A DNA stretch of 64,000 bases from Candidatus Poribacteria bacterium (lineage in GTDB: Bacteria; Poribacteria; WGA-4E; WGA-3G): positions 512,001 through 576,000 of the forward strand of contig CAXXUA010000003.1 in the NCBI GenBank assembly GCA_963663765.2. The letters are read 5' to 3'. Both the position numbers and the translations under genes were made by a program. Within the stretch, counting starts at the first letter, position 1. The number at the start of each line of letters is the position of its first letter. The notes below the pieces were generated by a model, which saw nothing but the letters and a program-made list of their open reading frames with translations, had not been told where the DNA came from and made no database searches. Below, in pieces: positions 17,263-64,000 of the stretch.

Positions 17263-17519
17263 ACCCGTTATGTGATGTCTTTACAACAACTGATAGACAC
17301 CGATATATCTCTCAGCAACATCCAGGATATCTGGAAGTTGCCGAGAGTTTTACATGCGCGTTCAAAGTTTTGTAGTGTCTCATATATAATTCTCTCATTT
17401 AGATATTCCACTTTTATTGCTTTTGAAGGTCTCTCTTCGGTAGGAGCGACCTACCGGTAATGATTTTCTCAGGTAACAACAAAAATATCTGAAACTAATT
17501 TAACCTTGTCTAATTCAAT

Positions 17520-18270
17520 GGGTGTGTAAAGTTTTTGCACAATCATTCCACTCTCCATTGTAGACGGTCGCGACCAGGAGGTCGCTCCTACCACCAAGAT
17601 GTATGGGAACTCAAACTATGCCGTTCCTACGGAACTAAAGAGAGGGGATGTGATATCGTCTTTCTATAAACATTGCGTCCCTACGGGACTAAAGACACGG
17701 ACAAGATGGCAACACATAAAATTAACGTCATAGCAAAAAATCATCAAGAATACCTAAAACAAATTAACCTTGTCTAATTGGGTGTGTAAAGTTTTTGCAC
17801 AAACATCCCACTCTCCATTGTAGACGGTCGCGACCAGGAGGTCGCTCCTACCACCAAGATGTATGGGAACTCAAACTATGTCGTTCCTACGGAAATAAAG
17901 AGAGGGGATGTGATAACGTCTTTCTATAAACATTGCGTCCCTACGGGACTAAAGATACGGACAAGATGGCAACACATAAAATTAACGTCATAGCAAAAAA
18001 TCATCAAGAATAATTAAAACAAATTAACCTTGACTAATTGGGTGTGTAAAGTTTTTGCACAAACATCCCACTCTCCATTGTAGACGGTCGCGACCAGGAG
18101 GTCGCTCCTACCACCAAGTTTTTGCACAAACATCCCACTCTCCATTGTAGACGGTCGCGACCAGGAGGTCGCTCCTACCACCAAGATGTATGGGAACTCA
18201 AACTATGCCGTTCCTACGGGACTAAAGAGAACAAAAGTTAGAACCTCTGTGCAAAAACTTTACACACCCC
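17520..18270. mobile_element. MITE family T2 (TIR GGGTGTGTAAAGTTTTTGCAC) with internal ~260-bp tandem amplification
   Basis: Heads at 17520, 17780, 18040; inverted end at 18249-18270; flanks TAATTCAA on both sides. Confidence 0.8.
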
Positions 18271-20856: not shown

Positions 20857-21612
20857 TACCATTTTCATGTGATAATGTCTCATTAGCAGCGGAAATCTGG
20901 TAGGAGTGACCTCACGGTCGCGACCGGCAAATCAACGGTATGAATGCCTTTTGGCATTCCCCGGTTCGCTCCTACCGAAGAGAGTAACCCCCTGCCAGTA
21001 AACAGTAGAATTCCTTAATCAATACCTTCGCCATTTTTGAGTGCTTCAGTTGAATGAGTATAATGTGTTGATCTACCATTGCTCTGTGATATTGTTAGGA
21101 TTACATAAATAAAAATAACTTCAGGTTTTCGTTGAAGTATTTTTATTTATCATAGCGTCTAATTTGACGATAGAATCTGACAGAATAATTTATATGCACA
21201 ATCTGGAAGAATGTGCTACAACTACACGCACAATCTGACAGAATGTCTATTATTGGCGAAGGTATTGCTTAATGAGACAAGATTTATTTGAGTTGGTATA
21301 ATACCATTTTCATATGATAATGTCTCATTAGCAGCGGAAATCTGGTAGGAGCGACCTCACGGTCGCGACCGGGAGGTCGCTCCTACCGAAGAGAGTAACC
21401 CCCTGCCAGTAAACAGTAGAATTCCTTAATGAGACAAGATTTATTTGAGTTGGTATTATAACATTTTCATGTGATAATGTCTCATTAGCAGCGGAAATCT
21501 GGTAGGAGTGACCTCACGGTCGCGACCGGGAGGTCGCTCCTACCAAAGAGAGTAACCCCCTGCCAGTAAACAGTAGAATTCCTTAATGAGACAAGATTTA
21601 TTTGAATTGGTA
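20857..21612. mobile_element. Three tandem copies of MITE family T4 (TACC...GGTA ends, TWA target) with REP doublets
   Basis: Units of ~155 bp joined by TAA/TTA; outer flanks TTA/TTA; single copy inverted at 26476-26629. Confidence 0.8.
21020..21267. mobile_element. 248-bp MITE (TIR CAATACCTTCGCCA) nested in the first T4 copy
   Basis: Perfect 14-bp TIR; 6-bp TSD CTTAAT; the neighbouring T4 copies show the empty site. Confidence 0.88.
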
Positions 21613-21623
21613 TTAGGAGAATT

Positions 21624-30130: not shown

Positions 30131-30810
30131 GGGTGTGTAAACTTTTTTTCACAAGCATCCCACTCTCGATTGTAGGGCGAAATCAAGAAATCATGAAATC
30201 AACGGTATGAATGCCTTTTGGCATTCCCCGGGTATGAATGCCATTTAGGCATTCCCCGGGTCTCTATACCCCGCCGCAACTGATTAAATGAGAGATTGCG
30301 GACACAGAAGTCCTAATGAGTTTTGACGTTCAAGTTGTGTATTCGTAGGGGCGTGGTTTCCACACATGATCTACGCAAACTCAAAAACCAACCGGGTTGG
30401 GGAACCCAACCCCTACGAATTCAACTACCGATTTTGATTGCCAAACTTCATTAGGTGTCAATATAAAGAAATATTGTTAATATTAACCATATTCTTCAGT
30501 CGCGTAGGGACGATATGTTTATCCTTTTATGTCGTTCCTACGGAACTAAAGAGAGGGGATGTGATAACGTTTTTGCTATAAACATTGCGTCCCTACGGGA
30601 CTAAAGAGAACAAAAGTTTGTACCTCTGTGCAAAAACTTTACACACCATAGGCGTCAATTTAAGAAAAAGGTGTTGGCATTTTCTCTTGTGGGAGGGGTT
30701 TTCAACCCCGATTTTATGTTCATTTTCTCTCAAATCGGGGTTGAAAACCTCTCCTACAAGTGGTCAAAACCCTTAAATTGACGCCTATGGTGCAAAAACT
30801 TTACACACCC
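30131..30810. mobile_element. Nested MITE cluster: T2 ends, micro-elements (30179-30260), T5 (30317-30450) and T7 (30647-30789, TIR CATAGGCGTCAATTTAAG)
   Basis: Each component recurs elsewhere in the window. Confidence 0.75.
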
Positions 30811-35552: not shown

Positions 35553-35921
35553 CAGGACTTACGCAGTTTTCATGATCCAATCAAGAATTAAGACGAAAAC
35601 GATGTAATTTTCAGCATTTTTTTGGTTTCCGGCGCGCTTACAAAGCACGTCTACCATTGGGGGCGCGCATACAAAGCACCAAATCAACGGTATGAATGCC
35701 ATTTAGGCATTCCCCGCCTACCATTGGGGGCGCGCTTACAAAGCACCAAATCAACGGTATGAATGCCATTTAGGCATTCCCCGCCTACCATTGGGGGCGC
35801 GCTTACAAAGCACGCCTACCATTGGGGCGCGCTTACAAAGCATCAAATCAAGAAATCAAGAAATCAACGGTATGAATGCCATTTTGGCATTCCCCGCCTA
35901 CCGTTTAATGCGTAAGTCCTG
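35553..35921. mobile_element. MITE family T3 with amplified REP units, three of them carrying the micro-element
   Basis: Perfect TIRs; 5-bp TSD AACGT. Confidence 0.88.
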
Positions 35922-42383: not shown

Positions 42384-42610
42384 CAGGACTTACGCAGTTT
42401 TCATGATCCAATCAAGAATTAAGACGATGTAATTTTCAGCATTTTTTAGGTTTCCGGCGCGCTTACAAAGCACGCCTACCGTTGGGTGCGTAAGTCCTGT
42501 CAGGACTTACGCAGTTTTCATGATCCAATCAAGAATTAAGACGAAAACGATGTAATTTTCAGCATTTTTTAGGTTTCCGGCGCGCTTACAAAGCACGCCT
42601 ACCGTTGGGA
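42384..42610. mobile_element. Two tandem T3 MITEs; the second is truncated and abuts tnpB
   Basis: CAGGACTTACGCA at 42384 and 42501; right TIR present only at 42487-42499. Confidence 0.8.
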
Positions 42611-47090: not shown

Positions 47091-48050
47091 TTACCATTCA
47101 AACACGGTACCCAGTAATCGCATCGGTTCATCACGTAGCCAACGGTATATCTGAGGTGCTTCAGTAACATTGACTCGGTGCCGAATTAGCGGTGTGATCC
47201 TTACTGACTCTTGACGAACAAATCGACAAAGATTTTCAAGATCATCGCGAGTAAAATGGCTACAATGTAAAATACTGATCTCCTTGAATTGCCCGACATT
47301 GAAGGTATAGTTCACATCAAACCTACCAGCAACCAATAGCAAACGTCCACGGGTTTTGCATGCTTGAATCATCGGTGAAATCATATCTGTAGCACCGGCA
47401 AAATCCATCACCGCATCAAAACTGCCATCAGCAATAAGTTTTCTCCACCCATCACCACTTGTATTGAGAACCAATTCAGCGATACCAAGTTCACGAACTT
47501 GTTCCAAACGGGACTCATCAATATCACACACGGATACGCGTGCTCCCATTGCATACATAATCTGCGCAGCAAACATGCCGATACATCCTTGTCCAACGAT
47601 AAGCACGCGTTCTCCAATACGCGGATCAACACGTCGACAACAGTGCATTGCTACACCCGATATACCGAATAACGCTGCCGCCGCAGGATCAATATCCTCA
47701 GGCAATTTCAACAATAACCCGTTTTCTGCAATACTGAACCGTTCAACATGATCCACACTTGCATAAATGAGATCTCCAATCTCAAGTTGTGTGACATCTG
47801 GTCCAGTTTCAATTACACGTCCAACGTTCTGATAACCACCGCCACAGGGCAAACTCTCGTCTGCGGGAGCATAGTTCCCACTGATCAACTGGTTGCGTTC
47901 CGTGCCGTTTGTTAGTCCCGTGAAAACTGCTTCACATAATACCTCGTTACCCACAGGCGACGCAGGTTCTTTCCAGTCAAAAACCACAGTTTTCTCACGG
48001 CGTTTATCCGGCAATAGTTTGATGACAATTGCTCTCACAGGTTTAATCAA
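47091..48050 (-). CDS. MDR-superfamily (zinc-ADH-like) dehydrogenase
   Basis: GTE, GYQNVGRVIETG, VGQGCIG, DAVMDFAG. Confidence 0.85.
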   Translation of the reverse strand: MIKPVRAIVIKLLPDKRREKTVVFDWKEPASPVGNEVLCEAVFTGLTNGTERNQLISGNYAPADESLPCGGGYQNVGRVIETGPDVTQLEIGDLIYASVDHVERFSIAENGLLLKLPEDIDPAAAALFGISGVAMHCCRRVDPRIGERVLIVGQGCIGMFAAQIMYAMGARVSVCDIDESRLEQVRELGIAELVLNTSGDGWRKLIADGSFDAVMDFAGATDMISPMIQACKTRGRLLLVAGRFDVNYTFNVGQFKEISILHCSHFTRDDLENLCRFVRQESVRITPLIRHRVNVTEAPQIYRWLRDEPMRLLGTVFEW

Positions 48051-48142: not shown

Positions 48143-48509
48143 CAGGGTGTGTAAAGTTTTCAATTTATTGAGTAAAATTTTATCACAGTCGCTTGTCCTT
48201 GAGTTAGCTTATTTTTGGGAGTTAACTCATTCTTTGTCTGAACCAGGATTTTCAGGATTACCAGATTTTCAGGATTTACCTCGTCAAGGGTTTTTGATAT
48301 GTGTTTATGCCCTCTTTTGGAATAGGATCTGATGAGAAATATCTTGATAATCTACTAATCCCGGTGAATGCCATAAGGCATTCATACCGTTGATTTGAAA
48401 ATCCTAGTTCAGACCAAAATCAAGAATACCATAAAAATCCTATATAATTGCTAATCTTAACCCAAAGTTAACTGGCATTACGATATATTCTTAAGACTGA
48501 ATAACCCTG
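48143..48509. mobile_element. T1-related MITE with a T2-like left end; contains a micro-element at 48361-48397
   Basis: Body homologous to 15111-15499; left end CAGGGTGTGTAAAGTTTT. Confidence 0.7.
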
Positions 48510-49460
48510 CCTTTTTAGCGTTTGCTATCTCCCTTTATATTTCCGTGCTACAATAACCTTTTATCAGGGTTATTCAGTTTTAGGGATTTTAGCTGTTTCC
48601 TGAGAAAATCGCGACCGGGAGGTCGCTCCTACCGCGTGGTTATTTTTTTGAAAAATTCAAACATTAGGTAAACTGAATAAAACTGCCTTTTTAGCGTTTA
48701 CTATCTCCCTTTATATTTCCGTGCTACAAAAACCTTTTATCAGGGTTATTCAGTTTTAGGGATTTTAGCTGTTTCCTGAGAAAATCGCGACCGGGAGGTC
48801 GCTCCTACCGCGTGGTTATTTTTTTGAAAAATTCAAACATTAGGTAAACTGAATAAAACTGCCTTTTTAGCGTTTACTATCTCCCTTTATATTTCCGTGC
48901 TACAAAAACCTTTTATCAGGGTTATTCAGTTTTAGGGATTTTAGCTGTTTCCTGAGAAAATCGCGACCGGGAGGTCGCTCCTACCGCGTGGTTATTTTTT
49001 TGAAAAATTCAAACATTAGGTAAACTGAATAAAACTGCCTTTTTAGCGTTTACTATCTCCCTTTATATTTCCGTGCTACAAAAACCTTTTATCAGGGTTA
49101 TTCAGTTTTAGGGATTTTAGCTGTTTCCTGAGAAAATCGCGACCGGGAGGTCGCTCCTACCGCGTGGTTATTTTTTTGAAAAATTCAAACATTAGGTAAA
49201 CTGAATAAAACTGCCTTTTCAGCGTTTACTATCTCCCTTTATATTTCCGTGCTACAAAAACCTTTTATCAGAGTTACTCAGTTTTAGGTATTTTAGCTTT
49301 TTTCTGAGAAAATCGCGACCGGCAAATCAAGAAATCAACGGTATGAATGCGCGTATGGCATTCACCGGGTATGAATGCCTGTTGGCATTCCCCGGGTCGC
49401 TCCTACCGCGTGGTTAATTTCTTTGAAAAATTCAAACATTAGGAAAACTGAATAACCCTG
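48510..49460. repeat. 5 x 176-bp tandem repeat (short T1 MITE + ~55-bp flank)
   Basis: MITE starts at 48565, 48741, 48917, 49093, 49269; the last copy is diverged and has nested micro-elements. Confidence 0.9.
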
Positions 49461-49580: not shown

Positions 49581-51926
49581 TTACTGCAATATTTTCCAAT
49601 CCGCCCACGAAGTGGTGAGTTTTCCTTTTGCCGACACAAGCCCTCTCAACCGAACCTTTGCTAACTGCTCTCGAACCCCAGCATGCGATACGTCCTCTAT
49701 TCGATAATAGTAGACTGTATTCGGTTTAGCCGTGGTATCTGTCAATGTATACTCATTTTGTTCACCTGTGGTGCCAGCACCTTGGACCATTGTCGGATTG
49801 ACGACTTTGAATTCACCATCCTTTGTTTCACTGCGGTAGATATAAAAACCTGCGTTGTCTACCTCTGATTCAGTTGTCCAGTTGAGGATAACACCTGCAT
49901 CGGTGTGTTCTGCTCGGAACAGAGATAAGGTGACGGGTAATATACCTCCAAGCGTATAACTCGGATTACCCACATCTGTCGGATCACCAAAATAGGTAGA
50001 CTTACCGAGTTTGACATCTACAGCGCGCTGCCAACTTGATGCTTCCCTGCCAACAAGCGGTCTCCGAGTTTCATGATGATAAAGCCGGAGCATAGAAATT
50101 CGCGCACCGTTCTCCGTTATCCCAGAGGGTAATTCCCATATAGGTGTATCCTGTGTTTCGCTATCACCATCAAGGTTGCCAACTGTATCAACTACAGTGC
50201 CAGTCGGTGTTGTCAGCTGCAGAAACAAACCATCCGGACTTAGAACGTTATTGCTTCCGAACTTAATAATATCCGCAAGATGGTGCTCAAAAAGATTGTA
50301 AACGCGTCTATCAGGAATGTTTTCTGCGTTCTGCGCTGTCCCCGTCACCCAAAGTGCCGTTTGCTTAGGCAAGATAACCAAATCTTTTAGTGTGAGAACT
50401 GCATGCCGATTCTGTTTACCGTGCCGTGACTCAATTGTCACTTCCCATCCGGTGAGATCAACCGCCTCTATAGGGGAGTTGTTGTATAGTTCTATCCACT
50501 GGGGCACCGTTCGGTTGCCGATTTTGTTGGTGAACATCATCTCGCTGAAACTTATCTGTCCGGTGTATTTTTGTCGGACTAACGGATTATTTGGGTAACC
50601 GGGTGTGCCGAGGCTTGTGTCTTTCGGTGCTGTCGGTTGATACCCGATCCCTGCTTGATACCTACTTTCACGCCACGCCTCTACATCATATCCGACATAC
50701 GATATTGTTGCGCGTTGCCATGCAGTTCCTTGTGTTAGCGGTTGGTCTGCTGTTAACTTGTCAAGGAAATACGTTCCTGCCACATCCTCAATTGCTTCCT
50801 GTGTGCCGTTTCTATCCAACGCACTTCGCAATATCAGCATATATGGCTTATTAGTTAATTGGAGTTTATTCGTCACTAAATAATCGTGCTGCGCACCGTT
50901 TCTAATATCTGGCGTTCTGATATTCTGTCCGCGCAGCAGTGTTGTTTCTCTCGGATCAGTATTGGTTATCAGCAAGATGCCACCAACGGGTAGGGTGTAG
51001 TCAGGAAACGAGACGACAACAACTTCCGGGTTCACCGTTTTATCTTCACGAGTAAGCATGCTAATCTCCCACTCCTTGAGAGAAATGTCCGTATTTCCGA
51101 TGTTCCTGAGCTCTATCCAGTCATTTCTGTCATCAGCAGCGTTGCGTACCTCATTGAAAAACACCCGTGTCAACGCAACTTGTGATTCGTGCGGCACTGA
51201 AGTTTCAAGGTCAACCGATATGCCCGCGGCAATTAGTTCATGGATTTGAAAAATATCTGTAATCGGGTTATCTGTAATATATAATTCCTCTAAATTGGTT
51301 AATGAGTAAAGCGAATGTATACTTTCTACTTTGTTAGAACTAATGTTTAATATCTCCAGTTGTAGTAAGGCATTGAGTGGGGTTACGGTACTAATCTGAT
51401 TATCTGCAAGGTATAATTCTACTAATTGCGTTAACCCACGTAACGGCACAAGATTGCTTAGCTGGTTAGAATTAAGAAACAACTCCTCTAATTGTGTCAA
51501 ACCTGAAAGTGGTTTTAGGTCACTGATGATATTGTCATTAAGCCATAATATAGATAAATTCGCTAACGTTGAAAGTGGGGTGATGTCCTTAATCTTGTTC
51601 GAGCCGAGTGATAGTAGTTCAAGTTGGGTCAAGTCTGCTAACACACTAATGTCACTAATTTGATTTGACTTTAGATTTAGGATTTCCAAATTCGTTGCGT
51701 GTTCCAATCCTGTTAAATCGGTAATTTCTGAATTGCTACCATTCAGTGCTGTCATCTGCAGCATCAATTGTTGTGTGATAGGTACGTTTTGAGACAACCT
51801 AAAATGTTCCCGTATAGCTGATGCTAAATTCGGGTCGGGTATGTACACCTCTTGTGCATAAGTAATTCGGTTCAATCCGATAATAACAATTAGAACACAA
51901 CATATCGTATAAATTCGTTTTATCAT
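49581..51926 (-). CDS. Secreted internalin-type LRR protein with two lamin-tail-like domains and an Ig-like C-terminal region
   Basis: IPDPNL cap, 22-aa LRRs, DWIELRN and QWIELYN, LPVTLSLF...WTTESEVDNAGF; RBS AGGAGG. Confidence 0.85.
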   Translation of the reverse strand: MIKRIYTICCVLIVIIGLNRITYAQEVYIPDPNLASAIREHFRLSQNVPITQQLMLQMTALNGSNSEITDLTGLEHATNLEILNLKSNQISDISVLADLTQLELLSLGSNKIKDITPLSTLANLSILWLNDNIISDLKPLSGLTQLEELFLNSNQLSNLVPLRGLTQLVELYLADNQISTVTPLNALLQLEILNISSNKVESIHSLYSLTNLEELYITDNPITDIFQIHELIAAGISVDLETSVPHESQVALTRVFFNEVRNAADDRNDWIELRNIGNTDISLKEWEISMLTREDKTVNPEVVVVSFPDYTLPVGGILLITNTDPRETTLLRGQNIRTPDIRNGAQHDYLVTNKLQLTNKPYMLILRSALDRNGTQEAIEDVAGTYFLDKLTADQPLTQGTAWQRATISYVGYDVEAWRESRYQAGIGYQPTAPKDTSLGTPGYPNNPLVRQKYTGQISFSEMMFTNKIGNRTVPQWIELYNNSPIEAVDLTGWEVTIESRHGKQNRHAVLTLKDLVILPKQTALWVTGTAQNAENIPDRRVYNLFEHHLADIIKFGSNNVLSPDGLFLQLTTPTGTVVDTVGNLDGDSETQDTPIWELPSGITENGARISMLRLYHHETRRPLVGREASSWQRAVDVKLGKSTYFGDPTDVGNPSYTLGGILPVTLSLFRAEHTDAGVILNWTTESEVDNAGFYIYRSETKDGEFKVVNPTMVQGAGTTGEQNEYTLTDTTAKPNTVYYYRIEDVSHAGVREQLAKVRLRGLVSAKGKLTTSWADWKILQ

Positions 51927-51954
51927 ATCTTTCCTCCTTTTAGACAATCCATTT

Positions 51955-54900
51955 CTACTTCCTTATCAACATCTTTCGTATTTTCGTATAATTACCCGCC
52001 TTGAATTTGACAAAATAGAGACCTCCCGCCACCTTCTCACCGAGATTGTTTTTACCATCCCAATATGCCGCGCGGCTCTGACTATAATAGACTCCTGCAT
52101 CACGATGCCCCAACGTTATCTGTCTAACCACAACACCCCTCACATCATAGAACGTCAGTGTAACATCCGCGGATTTTGCTAACTGGTAAGGTATCCACGT
52201 CTCCGGGTTGAACGGGTTGGGATAGTTGGGTAGGAGTGCAGTTTTGGCAGGATTTGCTTGTGCTGACGGGGCAGCACTAATATCAACGTCTATGCTGATA
52301 GTTTGTGTTGTTTTTGCTTGAAGTCTGCGAAGTGGAGCTAAATCCGAAATCGGATTGCCACCAATACCCAGCCCGGTAAGAGCTGTTAAATCTTCAAGAG
52401 GTGTGACGTTGCTGATGGAATTGCTAACCAGATTGAGATATGTCAGCGAAGTCAACCCAGAAAGTGCAGATATATCACTGATGGAATTGTTATACAGATA
52501 GAGCTCCGTCAGCGAAGCCAACCCAGAAACCGCTGATATATCGCTGATGGAATTGTCAGACAACCCCAACCTTATCAGTGAAGTCAACCCTGATACCACT
52601 GATATATCACTGATGGAATTATCAGGCAGATGGAGCCCTGTCAGCGAGGTCAACCCAGAAAGTGCAGATATATCACTGATGGAATTGCTATTCAGAAAGA
52701 GATATGTCAGCGAAGTCAACCCAGAAAGTGCAGATATATCACTGATAGAATTGAAATGTAGTTCAAGACCTGTCAACGAAGTCAACCCAGAAAGTGCAGA
52801 TATATCGCTGATGGAATTGTGATCCAGCCTAGATATTGTAAGCGAAGTCAACCCAGAAAGTGCAGATATATCGCTGATGGAATTGTTATACAGAAAGAGA
52901 TATGTCAGCGAAGTTAACCCTGAAATCGCGGATATATCACTGATGGAATTGCTACCCAGATTGAGCGATGTCAACGAAGTCAACTCCGAAACCGCAGATA
53001 TATCACTGATGGAATTGTCATACAGATAGAGCGTTGTTAGACTCGTTGCATGTTCCAATCCTGATATATTGCTTATATTAGACTCAATGGCAGATAGACT
53101 TGTTAATCTTTTCATCGTTTCTTGTGTAAGTGCATCACCTTCCTGTAGTCCGAGTGCGGTGCGCACCTTTGCACGTAAGTTCGCATCCGGCATCCACTCC
53201 TCTTCAGACAGGTCAGTTGATGTACCATTGTTGGGATCTTGTGTAATATCAATATCTATGCTGATGGTATGTGTTGTTTTTGCCTGCAGCCTGCGGAGTG
53301 GAGCGTAATCTGTAATCGGATTGCCTGAAAGATATAATTCTGTGAGTGCTGTTAAATTTTCAATAGGTGATACATCGCTGATGGAATTGCCATTCAGATA
53401 GAGCAAGGTTAACGAAGTCAATCCTGAAACCGCAGATATATCGCTGATGGAATTGTTCTACAGCCCGAGCGTTGTCAACGAAGTCAAGCCTGAAACCGCA
53501 GATATATCGCTGATGGAATTGCCAGCCAGACTGAGCCAGGTTAACGAAGTCAATCCTGAAACAGCTGATAAATCGCTGATGGAATTGTGGCCCAACCCGA
53601 GCGTTGTCAACGAAGTCAACCCTGAAACAGCTGATATATCACTGATGGAATTGAAAAGCAGATCGAGGAATGTCAACGAAGTCAATCCAGAAACAGCTGA
53701 TATATCGCTGATGGAATTGCCAACCAGACTGAGCGAGGTTAACGAAGTCAACCCTGAAACAGCTGATATATCGCTGATTTGATTCTCCGAGAGATCTAAG
53801 GATTGTAGTTGTGTTGCATATTCTAATCCGGTGATGTCGGTTATCTCTGAACCTATAGCAGATAGCCTCGTCAATCCTTGCAGTGTTTCTTGTGTAAGTG
53901 CATCACCTTCCTGCAGTCCGAGTGCGGTGCGCACCTTTACACGTAAATTCGCATCTGGCATCCACTCCTCTTCAGACAGGTCATCAGTTGATGTATCATT
54001 GTTGGGATCTTGTGTAATATCAATATCTATGCTGATAGTTTGTGTTGTTTTTGCTTGAAGTCTGCGGAGTGGAGCTAAATCTGTAATCGGATTGCCTGAA
54101 AGATATAATTCTGTGAGTGCTGTTAAATTTTCAATAGGTGATACATCGCTGATGGAATTGTGGACCAGACTGAGCGTTGTCAACGAAGTCAACCCTGAGA
54201 CCACGGATATATCGCTGATGGAATTGTTACCCAGCCCGAGCGTTGTCAACGAAGTCAACCCTTCAACGGGTGTGATGTCGCTGATTTGGTTCAAATCAAG
54301 ATTTAATGACCGTAAATTCGTTGCATGTTCCAATCCGGTAAGATCACTTATTTGACTTCTAGGAGCACTTAACGATGTCAATCCTTGCAGTGTTTCTTGT
54401 GTAAGTGCATTATGTTCCTGTAGTCCGAGTGCGGTGCGCACCGTCGCACGTAAATTCACATCCGGCATCCACGTTTCCTCAGAAACAGCAGCAGTATTAA
54501 CAGTTACTGTAATAGTTTGTGTAGCCGTCAACTCACCATCATCTGCTTCAACGGTAATAGTTGCGTTTCCCTCACTCACAGGTGTAATTGTCACCGTGGA
54601 TTCAGAAGCTTGTGCGGTTGCAACACTTGTATTACTGGAGTTTAACGTAAAGATAAGGGTATCATTGTTCGCATCTGTGAAGTAACCAGAAACGTCAAGA
54701 GACGTTGGAGTTCCGACATTCAACGTCTGTGCAGCAATCGTCCCTTGAGCACGAGGTGCCACATTTACTGTATCTATGATTAGGTCGGATCCACGAACAT
54801 TGATTATGATAATGTTAGAACAGTTATTGTCTGTATGTTCTTCATCCGTTACACTGTCTACGCACGCATAGTAATAGTATATACCGGACTGATTCGGTGC

Positions 54901-57900
54901 ACGGACACTATGAATTTCTTCATCCGAGTTACCTTTTCTTATACGTCGGACAGAATCTGTGCCAATTTGTTGATCATCCGGTGAAATTGCTGCATCTGCA
55001 GAAAGATAGTAACGGACCGTCGTAGAATTTGACGCATCTGCTGTTCCTTGATTTCGGACAGTGGCTTCTAAATTGATAGATGCATTTGAATCAACGAGAC
55101 TCTTGTTTGATGAAAGCGTGATAACCAAATCAGGCGATTCAGAAATGGTAACGGGAATTGGGTTAACCGTAACAGAGAAGGTCTGTGTAGCCGTCAACTC
55201 GCCATCGCTTGCCGTTATTGTAATCGTCGCGCTGCCTTCTGCAATAGGACGGATCGTTAAAATTGAACCTGACACCCCTGCTGCCTCTGCAACGACTATG
55301 CTGGTATCAGAGGAAATTGCTGTGTAGGTAAGTGAAGTATTGTTTGGATCAGAGAAATACGTTGATACGTCCAGTCTAATATGGGTATCCGTTACAGAGA
55401 GGGTCTGACTCGATATTGTGCCGACAGTTGTTGGTGCCCGGTTTTGAACAGTAATTGTAATAGCATAAGAACAGTTATCACCTGTATCGCTTTCATCTGT
55501 GATACTCTCCACACATCCGCCGTAATAGTAGGTACCAGATTCCATAGGTGCTGTCAGATTGATTTGCTGTGTTACCCTTCCACCGACATTAAGTGAACTG
55601 ACGTTAGCACTTCCAATTTCCGTATCATTCATGGATATATTTGAGTTAGGTGAGCGATACCATCGGAACGTTGTAGCAGATGAGTTCGCTGTGCCATTGT
55701 TACGTACAGTGGCATTCAGCGTAAAACTTTCACCTGGTCCTAAGGTCGCAGCACTTGTCGTCGGGGTCTCGACGACTAAATTTGGTAATGCAGGTTCATC
55801 CGGATCCGGGGCTTGCACAGTGATTGCAACTGCTGCGGAGCAATTGTTGTTTGAATTACTCTCATTGTCCACATCTGATACACATGCCCCATAATAGTAG
55901 ACACCCGGCTCGGTCGGTGCAGTTAGACTAATTGATTCCCTGCCAGTTTCATCTGCATCCAATCTTGTCACAGAGTCATCGCCAACCCGTCTGTCACTTG
56001 GTGATATACGTGCATCTGATGAACGGTAATAATCCAGATCAGCAGAAGATGTCGGCTCACCTAATCCTTGATTACGAACAGTAGCTCTCAGCGTAAAACT
56101 TTCACCAGGGTCAAGAGTCGTCTTACTTACCGAAATGGACTCAACGATATAGTCGGGGTATCCTGTTACCTGAACCTGCTCCTCGCCGGCAAGGTTGTTA
56201 GTAAGCATAGAGACCGTGAGATCGTCTTGGTAATCTGTATCATGAACATTAGATGGCAAAAATGCGCCATAATAGTAGCGATCAGGGATATTGAGTGCAT
56301 TCACTCTGAGTGTTAACGTAGTGCTTTCGCGTTGTCGTAAGGAAGGCACGCTTAGTTTCCCCGCACTTCGTAAATCCCGTTCTTCGCTTAATTCCTCAAG
56401 GTCATCGTTACGACTGCCCGAATGATAGTAAAAATAAATATCTGTCGCAGCGGACTCACCGGGACCGTTGTTTCGAATATCTACTTCCAACTCTATTTCT
56501 TCACCTATGCCAACTTGACTTTCATTGAGATCAAAATCGCGAATTTCCAAGTCTGGCGGGCGGCGGAATAGTAACTGATCACCACCAAAGGCTTCTACAC
56601 TCCAAGCTTCTATATCCACTTGATCCCATTCTATTTTCCACCAAGTATAACCGTTGTTTTCCTCCGGTCCATCTGTGATAATTCCTGTCCCACCATTCCA
56701 TAATTCTCTTATCACGTTATTGCCAATCCATGGGTTTGATCTTAAGTTAAGACCGTCGCCTGTCAATGGTACATTTTGAATGATAACAGAAACGCCTTCT
56801 CTAAGTCCTTCAGCGCGAGGATTACTACCGTTGGGAACAGAAAAGATTTGATCATTATTAGGTGGATGGACAGTACTAGTTTGTCTCACTACCACATAGA
56901 TAGTTTGTGTAGCAGTTAAGTTCGTGACCGTATCGCGTGCTAAGACTATTACTGTCGCAGTTCCTGCTTCCACGGGTCTAATCGTGACTCGCGAACCAGA
57001 AACAGATGCTGTTGCGATATTGCTGGGATTTGTACTTACTTCATATTTTAGGCTGTTTGAAGATGAAAAATATTGTGCAACGTTTACTGTTGTACCAGAA
57101 CCGTCGTCTGACAATGATTGAAAAGGAATCGCACCTTGTGGCACTGGAGCCTGAACCGTTGATGTTTGTGCGATTGGAAAAGTCGTTTGATTTGATGTGA
57201 AATTCAGATCAACTTCCTGCTCGGAAACAATAGGGGTTATTGGGAGTTCGCCAATCACCTTTTCATAATTCCATATAGGTATCCCTAAAGGATTGAACTC
57301 AAGCGTGACATCACTGGTTGCAGCAAGATCAAGCTTATACGTGAATTTTTCATTGTAGCTGCTATTTACCGTGTAAGAGTTCTGTGACATATCTAATCCA
57401 GGCGCTTTAATAGTTTGATTTTCGCGTGTTATCTTTACACCATTCACGGTGATGGATTCACCAGAAAGGGTAGCAGTGCTTAAAAAACCAAGATTGGCAC
57501 TAATTGCAGCGTTGCCTATCCCCTTTTCAACTATGGTTGCAGCAGGTTTTGATAATGAAGGTGGTATTGCAGTTAGTGCAGTAACAATCAGTTGGGTTAC
57601 CTCAACAGCAGTAAGTTCTGCCTGCACAAGTTTACGAATCCCGCCTCTTACGACAACATCATCATCCAGAAGAAGGGTACTAAATGGTTCAGACTCATCC
57701 CAAGTTTGATAAGGATTAACTGTAAGGGAACCGATGGGAATTAATTCGCTAAGTAATTGGGAAAGATCTAAGCCCCCAGGTTCAAAAACTGTCACTTCAT
57801 CTTTTACGAGTAATGGGAAATCAACCAATTGGTTGATTGCGAATACGGCAACCAAAAGAGTTGGCTCAAGAGTTAAATAAGGCACACTTTCTATTACAAA

Positions 57901-58251
57901 CGCGATTTTTACAACACCTTTAAGGGTCAGTCCACCTTTACTTTGAAGATTACCGTCTTTGCCACGAAGCTGAATTGTCCCATTCTCTTGGTCAAAGGTC
58001 ATAGTTCCCGTGACATCTGCCTCTATCTGCTCAGGCGTTAAGTCAAAAGTAAATACAATTTGAAAGTGGTTGTCAGGATCAACATTATTAGGAAATGCAT
58101 ACTCCTTTTGGATACCATCGCTAAAAGGAGTATACTCAGCATTGTAGTTTACAATTTTGGAAACTTGTTGTGAATAGCAAACTGAGTAGCACATTAATAT
58201 TAAAAGTGGGATAACTATGCTGCACGTTATTTTTTTATGTTTCGATGTCAT
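51955..58251 (-). CDS. Giant secreted protein (~2100 aa): Ig-like, SH3-like and CARDB-like repeats, three LRR blocks and an FlgD/T9SS-like C-terminal domain; interrupted by in-frame TAG at 53458-53460
   Basis: ORFs 53458-58251 and 51955-53421 are in the same frame and LRR periodicity continues across the TAG; C-terminal LLPNYPNPFNPETWIPYQLA. Confidence 0.85.
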
Positions 58252-61154: not shown

Positions 61155-64000
61155 CTATTTTAAAATAACCATTTTACGCAGGAAAGACACACTGTCTGCC
61201 TGCAGTTGATAAACATAGATACCGTTTGCCACTCGTTCACCGAGATTGTTCCGACCATCCCAATGCGCAGCACTGCTTCGGGTTTTGTAGTATCCTGCCC
61301 GCTGATGCCCCAAGTCCAGTCGACGCACAATAACGCCACGAGCATCGTAAATCGTAATCTGCACGTTGCTGGCATTTGCCAACTGATACGGTATCCACGT
61401 CTCAGGATTGAACGGATTGGGAAAGTTTGACAGCAAGGCGGTATTATCAGGAATTTCAGGTGATGTTTGAACGGATGGCGCAGCATTGGCTACATCGGTG
61501 ACATTGATTGTAACGGTGATGATATCAAGACCGTTTTTCCCATCATCAACAGATACTGTTACCGTATAGGATGTCTTTATTTCATAATCAAGTGTAGCCT
61601 TCGTTTGTAGCTGCCCGCTTGTGCTAACAATATCAAACGAAGCAGCATCCGTGCCGCTGAGTGAATATGTAAGTGTATCACTGGTATCTGAATCCGTTGC
61701 AGCCACTGGTGTGCCGATGCTTTGACCGGCTTCTGTATTTTCTGCAACGGATCGGGTGGTGCTGTCTCCGTCAGGAAACACAGGCGGGTTGTTATTAATG
61801 TCAATATTAATGTCAATATTAGGATTATTTTCCTTGAGTCTGCGGAGCGGACCGTAATCTGAAATCGGGTTTCCGATGATATATAATGTATTCAGTGAAG
61901 TCAAACCTTCAAGTTCAGAGACATCACTGATTTGGTTACTGCTGAGAGATAATTTTTTCAGTTTTGTGTTATTATCAAACACACCAGTGGGTAATGAGGT
62001 CAGAGCATTACTGCCTATCCAAAGATCTTTCAGTTTTGTGTTATTGTCAAACACACCAGTAGGTAACGAAGTCAGATCATTGCTGCCCAGCGCAAGTTCT
62101 CTTAGATTTGTGTTATTATCAAACACATTAGCAGGCAACGAAGTCAGCGCGTTGCTGCCCAGCACAAGCCATTCCAGTTTTGTGTTATTGTCAAACACAT
62201 TAGTGGGTAACGAAGTCAGCTCGTTGCGGCTTAGCCAAAGATCTTTCAGTTCAGTGTTATTGTCAAACACATTAGCGGGCAAAGAGGTCAGATCGTTGTT
62301 GTTCAGCGTAAGCCATTCCAGTTTTGTATTGTTGTTAAACACATTAGCGGGTAATGCGGTCAGATCGTTATTGTTCAGAGCTAGGTCTGTCAGATTTATG
62401 TTATTGTCAAACACATTAGCGGGTAATGCGGTCAGATCGTTATTGTCCAGAGATAGGTATGTCAGATTTGTGTTATTGTCAAACACATTAGCGGGTAACG
62501 AAGTCAGATCGTTATGATACAGGTAGAGATCTGTTAGTTTTGTGTTATTGTCAAACACATTAGCGGACAATGCGGTCAGATCGTTATCAGACAGGTAGAG
62601 GTCTGTCAGTTTTGTATTATTGTCAAACACATTAGCGGGTAAAGAGGTCAGACCGTTATGATACAGGTAGAGTTCTGTCAGTTTTGTGTTATTGTCAAAC
62701 ACACCAGCGGGTAACGAGGTCAGACCGTTAAAATGCAGCAATAGAGTTTTCAGTTTTGTATTATTGTCAAAGACACCAGCGGGTAACGAGGTCAGATCGT
62801 TTTTATACAGACTGATCCCTGTGAGTTTCGTGAGTTTGCCGAATACATCAGATCGCAACGAATTCAGTCCACTCCCACCAAACGAAAGGTATGTCAGTTT
62901 TGTGTTATTGTCAAACACTCCAGCGGGTAACGTTGTAAAATAGCATCCACCCAGTTCAATGGATCTCAGTTCAGTGTTTTCGTCAAAGACACCAGCGGGT
63001 AAAGATTTTAGACCGGTGTAGTAAAGACTAAGAGTTCTTAGCGCGGTCATACCGGAGAAATCACCTACTTTCAATGTGTTCATTTTTTTGTTATAAAGAT
63101 TCAGATCATCAATCTGCTGAAGATGTTCTGATGTCACATCTTCAGCAGAATCCACACCTGCTGCCTTCACGATTGCATTCCGCACATGTGATGTGCGTTC
63201 ACTGATTGGGACAATTATAGTTTCTGTCACGTCAGTGACATTGATAGTGACCGTGATTTCATCCTCGCCACTATTGCCATCAGAGACAGAAATGGTTACC
63301 GTATAAGAGGTTTTTGTTTCATAATCAAGTGCAGCATTCGTCTGTAGCTGCCCGCTCGTGTTGACGATGCTAAACGATGTCGCATCCGTACCACTGAGAG
63401 TATATGTAAGCGTATCGTTATCCGCATCGGTTGCAGCAACAGGGTCTCCGATGTTCTGCTCAGATTCCGTATTTTCCACAACTGACCGGGTTGTGCTATC
63501 GCCATCGGTGAATTCAGGGGTACGGTTTTCGTCCACATCAGTGACACTAATAGTGACCGTGATACTATCTCTACCACCATTCCCATCAGACACTGTGATT
63601 GTCAAGGAATAAGATGTCTTGGTTTCATAATTTATGGCTGATCTTGTTAGCAGCTGCCCGTTTGTAGTGTTAATGCTAAATGAGGCAGCATCCGTCCCAC
63701 TGAAACTATAAGTAAGATCATCGTCATCTGCATCGGTTGCCCCAATCGCACTCCCGATATTCACGCCGGATCCCGTATTCTCCGCAACAGAGCGGGTTAT
63801 GCTATCGCCATCTGTAAACACAGGTGCGCGGTTCTCGTCCACATCCGCCACATTGATTGTAATATCAATTTCGTCTGTGAGTGTTCCATCAGACACAGTG
63901 ATTGTGACAGAATAGGAGTCTTTTGTTTCGTAATCCAGAGCGGCTTTCGTTCGCAAATGTCCTGAGCTGCTATCAATGCCAAACGAGGCAGCATCCGTTC
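61155..64000 (-). CDS. Cadherin-repeat + 24-aa LRR protein with FlgD/T9SS-like C-terminal domain (5' end probably beyond the window)
   Basis: LDYETK/NRAPVF cadherin repeats; LTSLPAGVFDNNTKL repeats; LLSNFPNPFNPETWIPYQLA. Confidence 0.88.
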   Translation of the reverse strand, partial: TDAASFGIDSSSGHLRTKAALDYETKDSYSVTITVSDGTLTDEIDITINVADVDENRAPVFTDGDSITRSVAENTGSGVNIGSAIGATDADDDDLTYSFSGTDAASFSINTTNGQLLTRSAINYETKTSYSLTITVSDGNGGRDSITVTISVTDVDENRTPEFTDGDSTTRSVVENTESEQNIGDPVAATDADNDTLTYTLSGTDATSFSIVNTSGQLQTNAALDYETKTSYTVTISVSDGNSGEDEITVTINVTDVTETIIVPISERTSHVRNAIVKAAGVDSAEDVTSEHLQQIDDLNLYNKKMNTLKVGDFSGMTALRTLSLYYTGLKSLPAGVFDENTELRSIELGGCYFTTLPAGVFDNNTKLTYLSFGGSGLNSLRSDVFGKLTKLTGISLYKNDLTSLPAGVFDNNTKLKTLLLHFNGLTSLPAGVFDNNTKLTELYLYHNGLTSLPANVFDNNTKLTDLYLSDNDLTALSANVFDNNTKLTDLYLYHNDLTSLPANVFDNNTNLTYLSLDNNDLTALPANVFDNNINLTDLALNNNDLTALPANVFNNNTKLEWLTLNNNDLTSLPANVFDNNTELKDLWLSRNELTSLPTNVFDNNTKLEWLVLGSNALTSLPANVFDNNTNLRELALGSNDLTSLPTGVFDNNTKLKDLWIGSNALTSLPTGVFDNNTKLKKLSLSSNQISDVSELEGLTSLNTLYIIGNPISDYGPLRRLKENNPNIDINIDINNNPPVFPDGDSTTRSVAENTEAGQSIGTPVAATDSDTSDTLTYSLSGTDAASFDIVSTSGQLQTKATLDYEIKTSYTVTVSVDDGKNGLDIITVTINVTDVANAAPSVQTSPEIPDNTALLSNFPNPFNPETWIPYQLANASNVQITIYDARGVIVRRLDLGHQRAGYYKTRSSAAHWDGRNNLGERVANGIYVYQLQADSVSFLRKMVILK

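Follow-up and report, generated by a model that had tools for sequence, protein, structure and literature searches.

Internalin-like repeats with a diversified binding face in a giant surface protein of Candidatus Poribacteria

The 64,000-nucleotide window analysed here, from contig CAXXUA010000003.1 of a Candidatus Poribacteria genome, contains 18 near-copies of one leucine-rich repeat (LRR) unit that have very probably diverged at four binding-face residues by ordinary mutation and positive selection, without a dedicated DNA-diversifying machine. By this explanation, all units would be descended from one founder unit, the arrays would have been enlarged by duplication of units and modules via unequal recombination, and diversifying selection would then have altered the concave binding face of new copies, which would have remained fairly stable afterwards, with no dedicated mutator involved. 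The putative ligand would most likely belong to the sponge host, a phage, or another partner outside the cell.

Gene and protein architecture

This region encodes the LRR part of a very large surface protein, whose gene is a single 2098-codon frame (Table 1) and whose LRR modules are all of the internalin type. Two ORFs share this frame, which an internal TAG divides into 1597 aa and 488 aa. The N-terminus is signal-peptide-like, and four CARDB domains and one Big_2 domain (Pfam and NCBIfam profiles) lie in the same frame as the three LRR modules and the C-terminal sorting domain. Each module opens with a helical cap, followed by 22-residue units of the form LxxLxLxxNxIxDIxxLxxL. Eighteen of these, the NSIS(D/N) units of 66 bp each, stand in register in the one frame, and the Pfam profiles LRR_4 (E = 1.6e-57) and LRR_8 (E = 5e-36) identify them as tandem 22-residue LRRs.

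Table 1. Features of the surface-protein gene, in window coordinates
Feature	Position	Strand	Composition
Giant surface-protein frame	58251..51955	-	2098 sense and stop positions, then final stop (ORF list)
LRR module 1	54013..54480	-	Internalin-like N-cap, one NQISD unit, two NSISD units (54255-54124), C-cap unit
LRR module 2	53242..53973	-	N-cap, one NQISD unit, six NSISD units (53748-53353, TAG included), C-cap unit
In-frame TAG	53458..53460	-	x7 codon of unit 53484-53419, module 2
LRR module 3	52276..53205	-	N-cap, ten NSISD units (53046-52387), C-cap unit; frame residues 1683-1992
C-terminal sorting domain	51958..52236	-	FlgD Ig-like / T9SS type A sorting-domain type

Like the present protein, Listeria internalin A (PDB 2OMV, 2OMZ, 1O6S) carries units of this form after a homologous helical cap, and phmmer aligns it to query residues 77-364 (E = 9e-96; module 3). 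Specifically, residues 77-100 of the query align with residues 13-36 of internalin A in the cap, which precedes each of the three modules; the assignment of module 1 likewise includes alignment to internalin A. The NCBIfam internalin_A profile gives E = 1e-58, although its 199 bits lie far below the cut-off of 1600, short of a full-length class 1 internalin. The window protein is an LRR-domain relative, not an internalin orthologue.

The sorting domain scores above the cut-offs of FlgD_ig (32.6 bits vs 27; Pfam) and TIGR04183 (27.9 bits vs 23; NCBIfam), the latter being the profile for T9SS type A C-terminal domains, and below that of Por_Secre_tail (25.2 bits vs 27; Pfam). Of the T9SS machinery, PorP_SprF has a single match in the genome, at 19.4 bits and below its cut-off of 22.3, and the control genomes are likewise without a match. 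Most related loci among the matches listed, in scans of both genome and metagenome contigs, align to the sorting domain alone. The related loci that match best in public genomes come from Candidatus Poribacteria MAGs; the window sequence itself occurs in sponge metagenome runs, one of which carries that label.

Codon pattern of the repeat units

Within each unit, the four variable codons are x3, x5, x7, and x8 of the beta-strand. These positions presumably correspond to the concave, ligand-binding beta-sheet of internalins, a placement based on the internalin A alignment and on LRR structure in general. The third base at x7 is T in 15 of the 18 units, C in 2, and G in 1, while at x8 it is C in 17 and T in 1; x3 ends in G, and x5 in T, in 12 of 18 units each. 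On recount, the tallies of the original prediction at x7 and x8 were exact, and its NNG/NNT trend at the xLx codons was also recovered. The T-versus-C contrast between x7 and x8 (Fisher p = 6e-7) reflects neither chance nor codon usage. Since the genome-wide C share of NNY codons is only 35% (1481 long ORFs), C in 17/18 units at x8 is unlikely (binomial p = 1e-7); T in 15/17 at x7, set against genome usage, is not significant (p = 0.07).

That these codons are randomised and vary freely, as had been proposed, proved to be an overstatement. Only 6 of the 16 possible dinucleotides are used at x8, with purine-purine in 13/18 window units and in 131 of the 173 units of the wider family, and K, E, Q, R, M, and W are encoded by none of the 36 x7 and x8 codons of the window gene. 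The inference of a specially fixed third base fails as well. Framework codons retain their modal third base in 7 to 18 of the 18 units, and in at least 16 units at 10 of the 18 codons, so the conservation seen at x7 and x8 is typical. By the counting method, synonymous divergence (pS) is 0.401 in the framework, no lower than the 0.347 at the variable codons, whose third bases thus behave like the remaining synonymous sites of the unit; the description of the framework DNA as almost invariant was likewise an overstatement.

The one x7 codon ending in neither T nor C is the in-frame TAG itself, a nonsense change in this strain; the original prediction had counted the x7 codons correctly and did not flag this exception as a stop. 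Contigs from three public sequencing runs (X2-X4) carry no other letter at the TAG, and a contig from a fourth (X1) has G for A at 53460 on the plus strand, which changes the codon to CAG. The broken gene is probably a recent pseudogene or truncated allele in this strain.

Paralog and genus-wide family

The window gene, on contig C3 of the assembly, has a paralog of 23-24 units on contig C13, with third bases at x3, x5, x7, and x8 of G in 18, T in 21, T in 21, and C in 18 of 23 units, respectively. The 18 window units, the units of the paralog, and related units from 11 further genomes of the genus share one 66-bp pattern, xxG CTC xxT CTG xxT xxC AAT, and the codon pattern occurs at 16 loci from 12 genomes, several of which are single-contig assemblies. 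Overall, the repeat family is carried by 14 of 40 genus genomes. The genus search pattern, with Y fixed at the third bases, served for locus finding only; the third-base counts for the family (n = 173 units) come from a protein-level extraction without third-base constraint. The modal third base is kept in fractions of 0.71, 0.82, 0.87, and 0.84 of these units at the four variable codons vs 0.50-1.00 at framework codons.

In this genome, six further LRR gene groups show mixed third bases at the corresponding positions. Likewise, a 72-bp array within the window, which is another hypervariable LRR array, has mixed third bases and does not display the pattern. Its presence in the paralog and in units across the genus, together with its absence from the other LRR families of the genome, points to derivation from one founder unit. 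The framework also bears a concerted change: in one related genome, 12 of 13 units read ATA instead of the ATC seen here. A close ortholog of the window gene was not found; in metagenome contigs scanned with its 488-aa C-terminal ORF, the best full-length matches are 33-40% identical, and most others cover the sorting domain only.

Selection on the variable codons

By the counting method, pN is 0.639 at the variable codons and 0.104 in the framework, giving dN/dS of 3.1 at the former vs 0.20 at the latter. Codon models place omega at the variable codons at 3.3 (window gene), 4.5 (paralog), and 4.0 (the two combined), with omega = 1 rejected by likelihood-ratio tests (p = 5e-8, 1e-12, and 3e-19, respectively), and at 0.19-0.48 in the framework. 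The tests are approximate, since the trees are built from 66-nt units and ignore recombination among units, which violates the model, and omega is a rough estimate because a pN of 0.64 is near saturation. Within these limits, dN/dS is above 1 at the exposed positions and the framework is under purifying selection, as expected of diversifying selection; strong positive selection on recently duplicated repeats, the third of the causes originally put forward, is thereby supported. Among unit pairs with 1 or 2 of 58 framework differences, means of 3.2 and 4.1, respectively, of 8 variable sites differ, although much of this steep rise is expected if most units lie near a common consensus.

The rate of third positions relative to positions 1-2 was estimated as a likelihood profile over fixed values, with best values of 0.3-0.5 (window gene), 1.0 (paralog), and 0.5-0.75 (combined set). 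A rate of 0.1 costs 7.6 lnL in the paralog and 7.7 lnL in the combined set, such that 0.1 or less is rejected there; in the window gene alone it costs only 1.2 lnL and is not rejected. For the paralog and the combined set, amino-acid changes at the third positions of the variable codons are thus also accelerated.

Stability between species and samples

The units can be followed between species through the paralog, which has an ortholog in another species (G053), rather than through the window gene. Thirty-six of 48 variable codons are identical between the two, the rest comprising 9 non-synonymous and 3 synonymous differences, and the 192 framework codons show 21 non-synonymous and 10 synonymous differences. 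The number of modules differs between these orthologs, at 3 vs 6.

Between samples, pieces of 147-413 bases from runs X2-X4 (three runs, two studies) agree with the window at every letter over at least 8 units. X1, which may represent a paralog or a relative, has 22 differences inside units, 10 of them at variable-site positions; among the units on its contigs, some match the window exactly, and in two the variable codons are changed wholesale. All four runs were compared as assembled contigs, which hide rare variants. Run contigs break within the array and show alternative joints, with skips of 1114 and 1303 bases and steps back of 514; paralogs or relatives may be their source, and the module arrangement may differ. 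No ongoing hypermutation was seen in these contigs, those of three samples being identical, or in the ortholog units of the paralog, which are mostly stable.

Search for a dedicated diversifier

Diversity-generating retroelements (DGRs) vary AAY codons through adenine-specific change (PMC5006420, in its available text). Their hallmarks are a reverse transcriptase gene, close to the variable gene or at least elsewhere in the genome, a template region, typically a non-coding second copy with about 90% likeness to the variable region (VR), and variation restricted to template adenines, none of which was found here. The genome, at 97.8% completeness, has 0 matches to the reverse transcriptase profile RVT_1 (PF00078; 4 candidates scored); this search covers the 15-contig assembly, and an element on an unbinned replicon is possible. 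Across the genus, RVT_1 occurs in 6 of the 14 genomes with the repeat family, being absent from 8 of them, and in 12 of the 26 without it, such that no association with the family is evident. A blastn search of the genome with the 10-unit array returned only the C3 and C13 genes, in which all copies are coding, and one further match, of 70%, inside another LRR gene on contig C7, so that a template copy was not found. The 11 framework adenines, the synonymous A in ACA and in ATA among them, are retained on average in 0.90 of window units and 0.92 of family units, and the AAT adjoining the variable codons is intact in 18/18 units; this bears out the earlier remark that untouched framework adenines speak against a classical DGR. 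The cassette shuffling that had also been suggested finds no support, as both genes are intact in length, silent cassettes are absent, and the pieces from three samples are identical to the window.

Alternative explanations

A targeted diversifier, whether a DGR-like retroelement or an unknown and possibly duplication-coupled mutator, would rewrite positions 1-2 of the four codons and spare the third, and the NNT-NNC codons do resemble AAY-derived DGR codons (PMC5006420, in its available text); x8 keeps its C despite the preference of the genome for T, and a low third-position rate is compatible with the window gene taken alone. Such a device, which the original prediction had listed among its options, is nonetheless very unlikely. 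The genome, at 97.8% completeness, lacks RVT_1 and a template, framework adenines are kept, x8 is non-random in its purine-purine bias, amino-acid changes at third positions run faster in the paralog and combined set, orthologous units and the contigs of three samples are stable, and the other hypervariable LRR array of the window is without the pattern. A reverse-transcriptase-independent burst process, perhaps tied to duplication or repair, that rewrites the first two bases in new units which are then stably inherited, would explain near-identical frameworks with about half of the variable sites different, as well as the few third-position changes of the window gene and the stable orthologs; it is, at best, a long shot.

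It is also conceivable, though rather unlikely, that the units are ancient, that their binding-face residues have been kept by selection, and that gene conversion or unequal crossing-over has renewed a framework that only looks young. The ATA state common to nearly all units of one genome, the change in module number between orthologs, the stability of variable residues between species, and the mixture in X1 of identical units and units changed wholesale at the variable codons all accord with this idea. Against it, CTC and CTG are interspersed among the variable codons at a 3-bp spacing, and a conversion tract renewing CTC and CTG or the third bases would also overwrite positions 1-2; moreover, pS in the strand framework codons (0.48) is similar to that in the rest of the unit (0.38; no saturation correction). 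Old residues in a renewed framework differ from the preferred account of mutation and positive selection only in timing and involve no special machinery. Relaxed constraint alone, with neutral drift at four exposed positions, might be read from the modestly greater change at the orthologs' variable codons (9/48 vs 21/192 non-synonymous) with similar synonymous counts, but it is highly improbable given an among-unit dN/dS of about 3 to 4.5 and the rejection of omega = 1 at p 5e-8 to 3e-19, even as approximate values. Finally, the breaks and alternative joints of short contigs from public runs could suggest units collapsed or chimerically joined in a metagenome-assembled genome; such an artefact is scarcely credible beside the exactly matching pieces from three runs and two studies and the recurrence of the codon pattern at 16 loci, including those in single-contig assemblies.

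Comparison with known systems

Poribacteria are rich in eukaryote-like LRR proteins. Genomic papers on sponge symbionts mention LRR proteins alongside Poribacteria; a codon-level analysis of repeat-variable positions in Poribacteria was not found in the literature searched, which is not proof of absence. Relative to internalin A, the present protein differs in placing three modules in one 2098-codon frame with CARDB and Big_2 domains, in ending with a T9SS-type or FlgD-Ig C-terminal sorting domain rather than a Gram-positive wall anchor, and in having units far more alike in DNA; the bacterium that encodes it is a sponge dweller rather than a pathogen.

Another close likeness is seen in the surface LRR proteins of Flavobacterium psychrophilum, which, in the available text of Altae-Tran et al. 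2020 (PMC10392669), have an N-terminal secretion peptide and 2-14 internal LRRs about 22 residues long and hypervariable at several positions of one face, and which differ between strains in copy number and repeat content via recombination. The N-terminal secretion peptide, repeat length, and one-sided variability are common to both systems. That locus, however, is described there as a recombining one in which as many as 19 genes stand in tandem and gene fragments are numerous, whereas the present genome has no gene array, the modules being repeated inside single giant proteins encoded by two paralogs on different contigs. A third-base founder signature or dN/dS was not found in the available text of that account.

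DGR variable proteins likewise show NNY-type codon variation at ligand-contacting residues (PMC5006420, in its available text). Here, in contrast, there is no reverse transcriptase, template region, or adenine specificity; the fold is LRR and not the C-type lectin fold of that account, and it is the repeat units of one gene that vary, not VR against TR. The repeat-variable di-residues of TALEs, lamprey VLRs, and the LRRs of Dictyostelium purpureum also combine a near-identical scaffold with few specificity residues per unit and, in D. purpureum, the two hypervariable residues are mostly Y, D, H, N, and C (PMC10392669, in its available text), residues that NNY codons likewise encode. The present units differ from TALEs in giving no evidence for a one-unit-one-ligand-element code, and from VLRs in having no somatic assembly.

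Conclusions

Free first two bases and a fixed third base in repeats are expected from common descent together with dN/dS above 1. As such, calling a DGR signature needs a third base that is more conserved than neighbouring synonymous sites, in addition to a template and a reverse transcriptase. For Poribacteria, the analysis describes a family of giant, multi-module, internalin-like surface proteins with a sorting domain, whose binding face is under measurable diversifying selection in 14 of the 40 genomes of one genus. These LRR proteins are plausible mediators of sponge-symbiont recognition, or phage receptors, and the family is therefore a reasonable target for binding studies.

Architecture of the LRR gene

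Read through the TAG codon that is the sole separator of its two ORFs, the window gene forms a single frame of 2098 positions, with domains in the order hydrophobic, signal-peptide-like N-terminus, four CARDB, Big_2, three LRR modules, and C-terminal sorting domain. All three modules start with the cap EE[ET]WMPD... and end with ...ISID[IV]DI[TS], and Listeria internalin A matches them, cap included, at E = 9e-96. The sorting domain (LLPNYPNPFNPETWIPYQL...) exceeds the cut-offs of both FlgD_ig and TIGR04183 ('T9SS type A sorting domain'). It is widely shared among Poribacteria MAGs and metagenomes (loci L027-L185), and this accounts for a local depth spike in metagenome-run contigs mapped on the window; most related loci among the matches listed in the genome-contig and metagenome scans cover this domain alone, at 40-70% identity. 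The best-matching relatives among public genomes are Candidatus Poribacteria MAGs, and the window sequence is present in sponge-metagenome runs.

Surface LRR proteins of Flavobacterium psychrophilum, described in passages of PMC10392669, carry both a secretion peptide and a type 9 secretion signal, and their units, about 22 residues long, are hypervariable at several positions of one face; these LRRs are likened there to TALE di-residues, VLRs, and Dictyostelium LRRs. Judged against those passages, the window gene belongs to a kind of bacterial surface LRR protein already described. The sponge-symbiont literature mentions LRR proteins and Poribacteria together, and the literature searched yielded no analysis of such Poribacteria repeats at the codon level.

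Features of the window and the related gene on contig C13 of the same genome
Feature	Location	Strand	Details
Palindromic repeats	1370-2729, 17480-18185, 21264-21615, 30204-30261, 35651-35842, 42384-42609, 49340-49397		G+C-rich, 28-36 bp
Tandem repeat	48496-49322		176 bp, 4.7 copies, 98% identity; between a gene ending at 48050 and an LRR / lamin-tail-domain gene (49581-51947)
ORF	53421..51955	-	488 aa, same frame as 58251..53458
Sorting domain	51958-52236		Widely shared
Depth spike	52174-52260		Run contigs mapped on the window
ORF	58251..53458	-	1597 aa, same frame as 53421..51955
TAG codon	53458-53460	-	At a binding-face codon
Second LRR array	about 61960-62930	-	13 units, each 24 residues (72 bp) long
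Paralog	C13, 627348-637106		3253 aa; many cadherin-like repeats, six LRR modules, the same sorting domain as the window gene

The palindromic repeats are G+C-rich, 28-36 bp long, and of several families, some arranged head to tail and some lying inside repeats of 157-282 bp; they look like REP-type intergenic elements.

Third bases at the binding-face codons

The variable codons of the 18 NSIS[DN] units are numbers 5, 7, 9, and 10 of the 22-codon register, corresponding to x3, x5, x7, and x8 of LxxLxLxxN. The original prediction, that the first two bases of these codons are randomised around a fixed third base within a nearly invariant framework, is partly confirmed. Its counts were exact, with T in third position at x7 in 15 of 18 units (exceptions GTC, GGC, and TAG) and C at x8 in 17 (exception GAT), and its similar NNG/NNT trend at the other two codons also held (G at x3 and T at x5, each in 12/18). 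The T-versus-C contrast of the adjacent x7 and x8 codons is significant (Fisher p = 6e-7). Over 1481 long ORFs of this genome, 35% of NNY codons end in C, so that its prevalence at x8 opposes genome usage (binomial p = 1e-7), while T at x7 is consistent with it (p = 0.07); together with the x7/x8 contrast, this indicates that codon bias does not determine the third bases.

The notion of a specially fixed third base did not survive comparison with the 18 framework codons. Nei-Gojobori counts for every pair of units give a pS of 0.347 at the four variable codons versus 0.401 in the framework. Out of 18 units, 12, 12, 15, and 17 retain the modal third base at the former, versus 7 to 18 at the latter (at least 16 units at ten codons). 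The framework is therefore not invariant at silent sites, and third bases at the variable codons resemble any other silent site in a family of units that share a founder. Non-synonymous divergence is 0.639 versus 0.104, giving dN/dS of 3.1 at variable codons and 0.20 in the framework. "Randomised" was likewise too strong, since x8 in the window gene uses only 6 of 16 dinucleotides, mostly purine-purine ones (13/18 units, and 131/173 across the family) that are interconvertible by transitions.

Inheritance and stability of the pattern

The paralog on C13 matches the window gene in its third bases (G, T, T, and C in 18, 21, 21, and 18 of 23 units, respectively). A DNA pattern search located the repeat family in 14 of 40 genus genomes, and extraction without constraint on the variable codons, from 16 loci of 12 genomes, yielded 173 units whose framework identity is 75% or more. 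In these, the variable codons retain the modal third base at frequencies of 0.71, 0.82, 0.87, and 0.84, versus 0.50-1.00 in the framework. At the corresponding positions, third bases are mixed in six other, more diverged LRR gene groups of this genome. The second LRR array of the window, whose protein carries cadherin-like repeats and a similar sorting domain, served as a control: its framework is well conserved, and differences in its variable codons affect every codon position, third bases being mixed. Restriction of the pattern to one young family fits a founder effect, and would not be expected of a mechanism that targets LRR binding-face codons in general; the third-base pattern is inherited.

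Among relatives that carry the paralog's orthologue, the closest (G053; locus L015) shares about 91% DNA identity. Compared unit by unit, 36 of 48 variable codons are identical; the differences there number 9 non-synonymous and 3 synonymous, against 21 and 10, respectively, in 192 framework codons. The variable residues are thus inherited much like the rest of the unit, and diversification is not continuous. Module number changes between species, the G053 orthologue, which also contains a lengthy stretch in which E and T residues alternate, having three LRR modules versus six here.

Three public runs, drawn from two studies, supply assembled contig pieces (147-413 bases) with zero differences from the window over at least 8 units and the TAG; one of the three runs may be the assembly's source. 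A fourth run, from another study, contains a related sequence, which may be an allele, a relative, or a paralog. Among the differences listed, both module 1 units have none, unit 53484 has only CAG for TAG, and units 53748 and 52980 differ chiefly in variable codons; of the 22 within-unit differences listed, the framework accounts for 10 and the variable codons for 12, of which 10 fall in positions 1-2 and 2 in the third base. The CAG identifies the TAG, which severs the sorting domain from the N-terminal 1597 aa, as a C-to-T nonsense change, and the otherwise intact frame suggests that the window gene in this strain is a recent pseudogene or truncated allele.

Targeted mutation or selection

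According to portions of PMC5006420, what defines a DGR is a VR paired with a TR that lies close by and is about 90% alike, together with a reverse transcriptase and change that is specific to adenine. The proposed search for a DGR reverse transcriptase, run genome-wide, found no RVT_1 in this genome (97.8% complete); across the genus, RVT_1 occurs in 6 of 14 genomes with the repeat family versus 12 of 26 without. About half of the genus, this genome included, has no RVT_1 match, and four genomes (G015, G016, G050, and G055) have 12-17 apiece, many of which lie at the ends of contigs within ORFs about 1400 aa long. At the DNA level, no array copy was found outside the window gene and paralog except a 70% match in another LRR gene (on contig C7). 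Retention of the 11 framework adenines averages 0.90 across units, and the AAT directly 3' of the variable codons is intact in 18/18. With neither RVT_1 nor a template-like copy, and with framework adenines kept, the suggested DGR-like diversifier is not supported. The cassette-shuffling reading is likewise unsupported.

A codon model was fitted on maximum-likelihood trees of 18 window-gene units, 24 paralog units, and both together; these tests are approximate, with trees built from 66-nt units, equal codon frequencies, and recombination ignored. Omega at the variable codons was 3.3, 4.5, and 4.0, respectively, with omega = 1 rejected at p = 5e-8, 1e-12, and 3e-19. The relative rate of third-position replacements peaked at 0.3-0.5, 1.0, and 0.5-0.75; forcing it to 0.1 costs 1.2, 7.6, and 7.7 lnL units, and to 0.02 costs 3.3, 14.1, and 16.6, the window gene alone having little power. 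Third-position replacements are thus also accelerated, which is predicted by selection on amino-acid change but not by a mutator confined to the first two bases.

Unit pairs with identical frameworks differ at a mean of 0.14 of 8 variable sites, and those with one or two framework differences at 3.2 and 4.1, rising to a plateau of about 5.3. Much of this steepness is expected if most units lie near a shared consensus, yet the rise remains compatible with a burst of divergence shortly after duplication; mainly because of that burst, a small probability is retained for an episodic mechanism. Of the alternatives originally offered, positive selection on duplicated LRR repeats is the one supported, by the dN/dS counts and the approximate codon-model tests.
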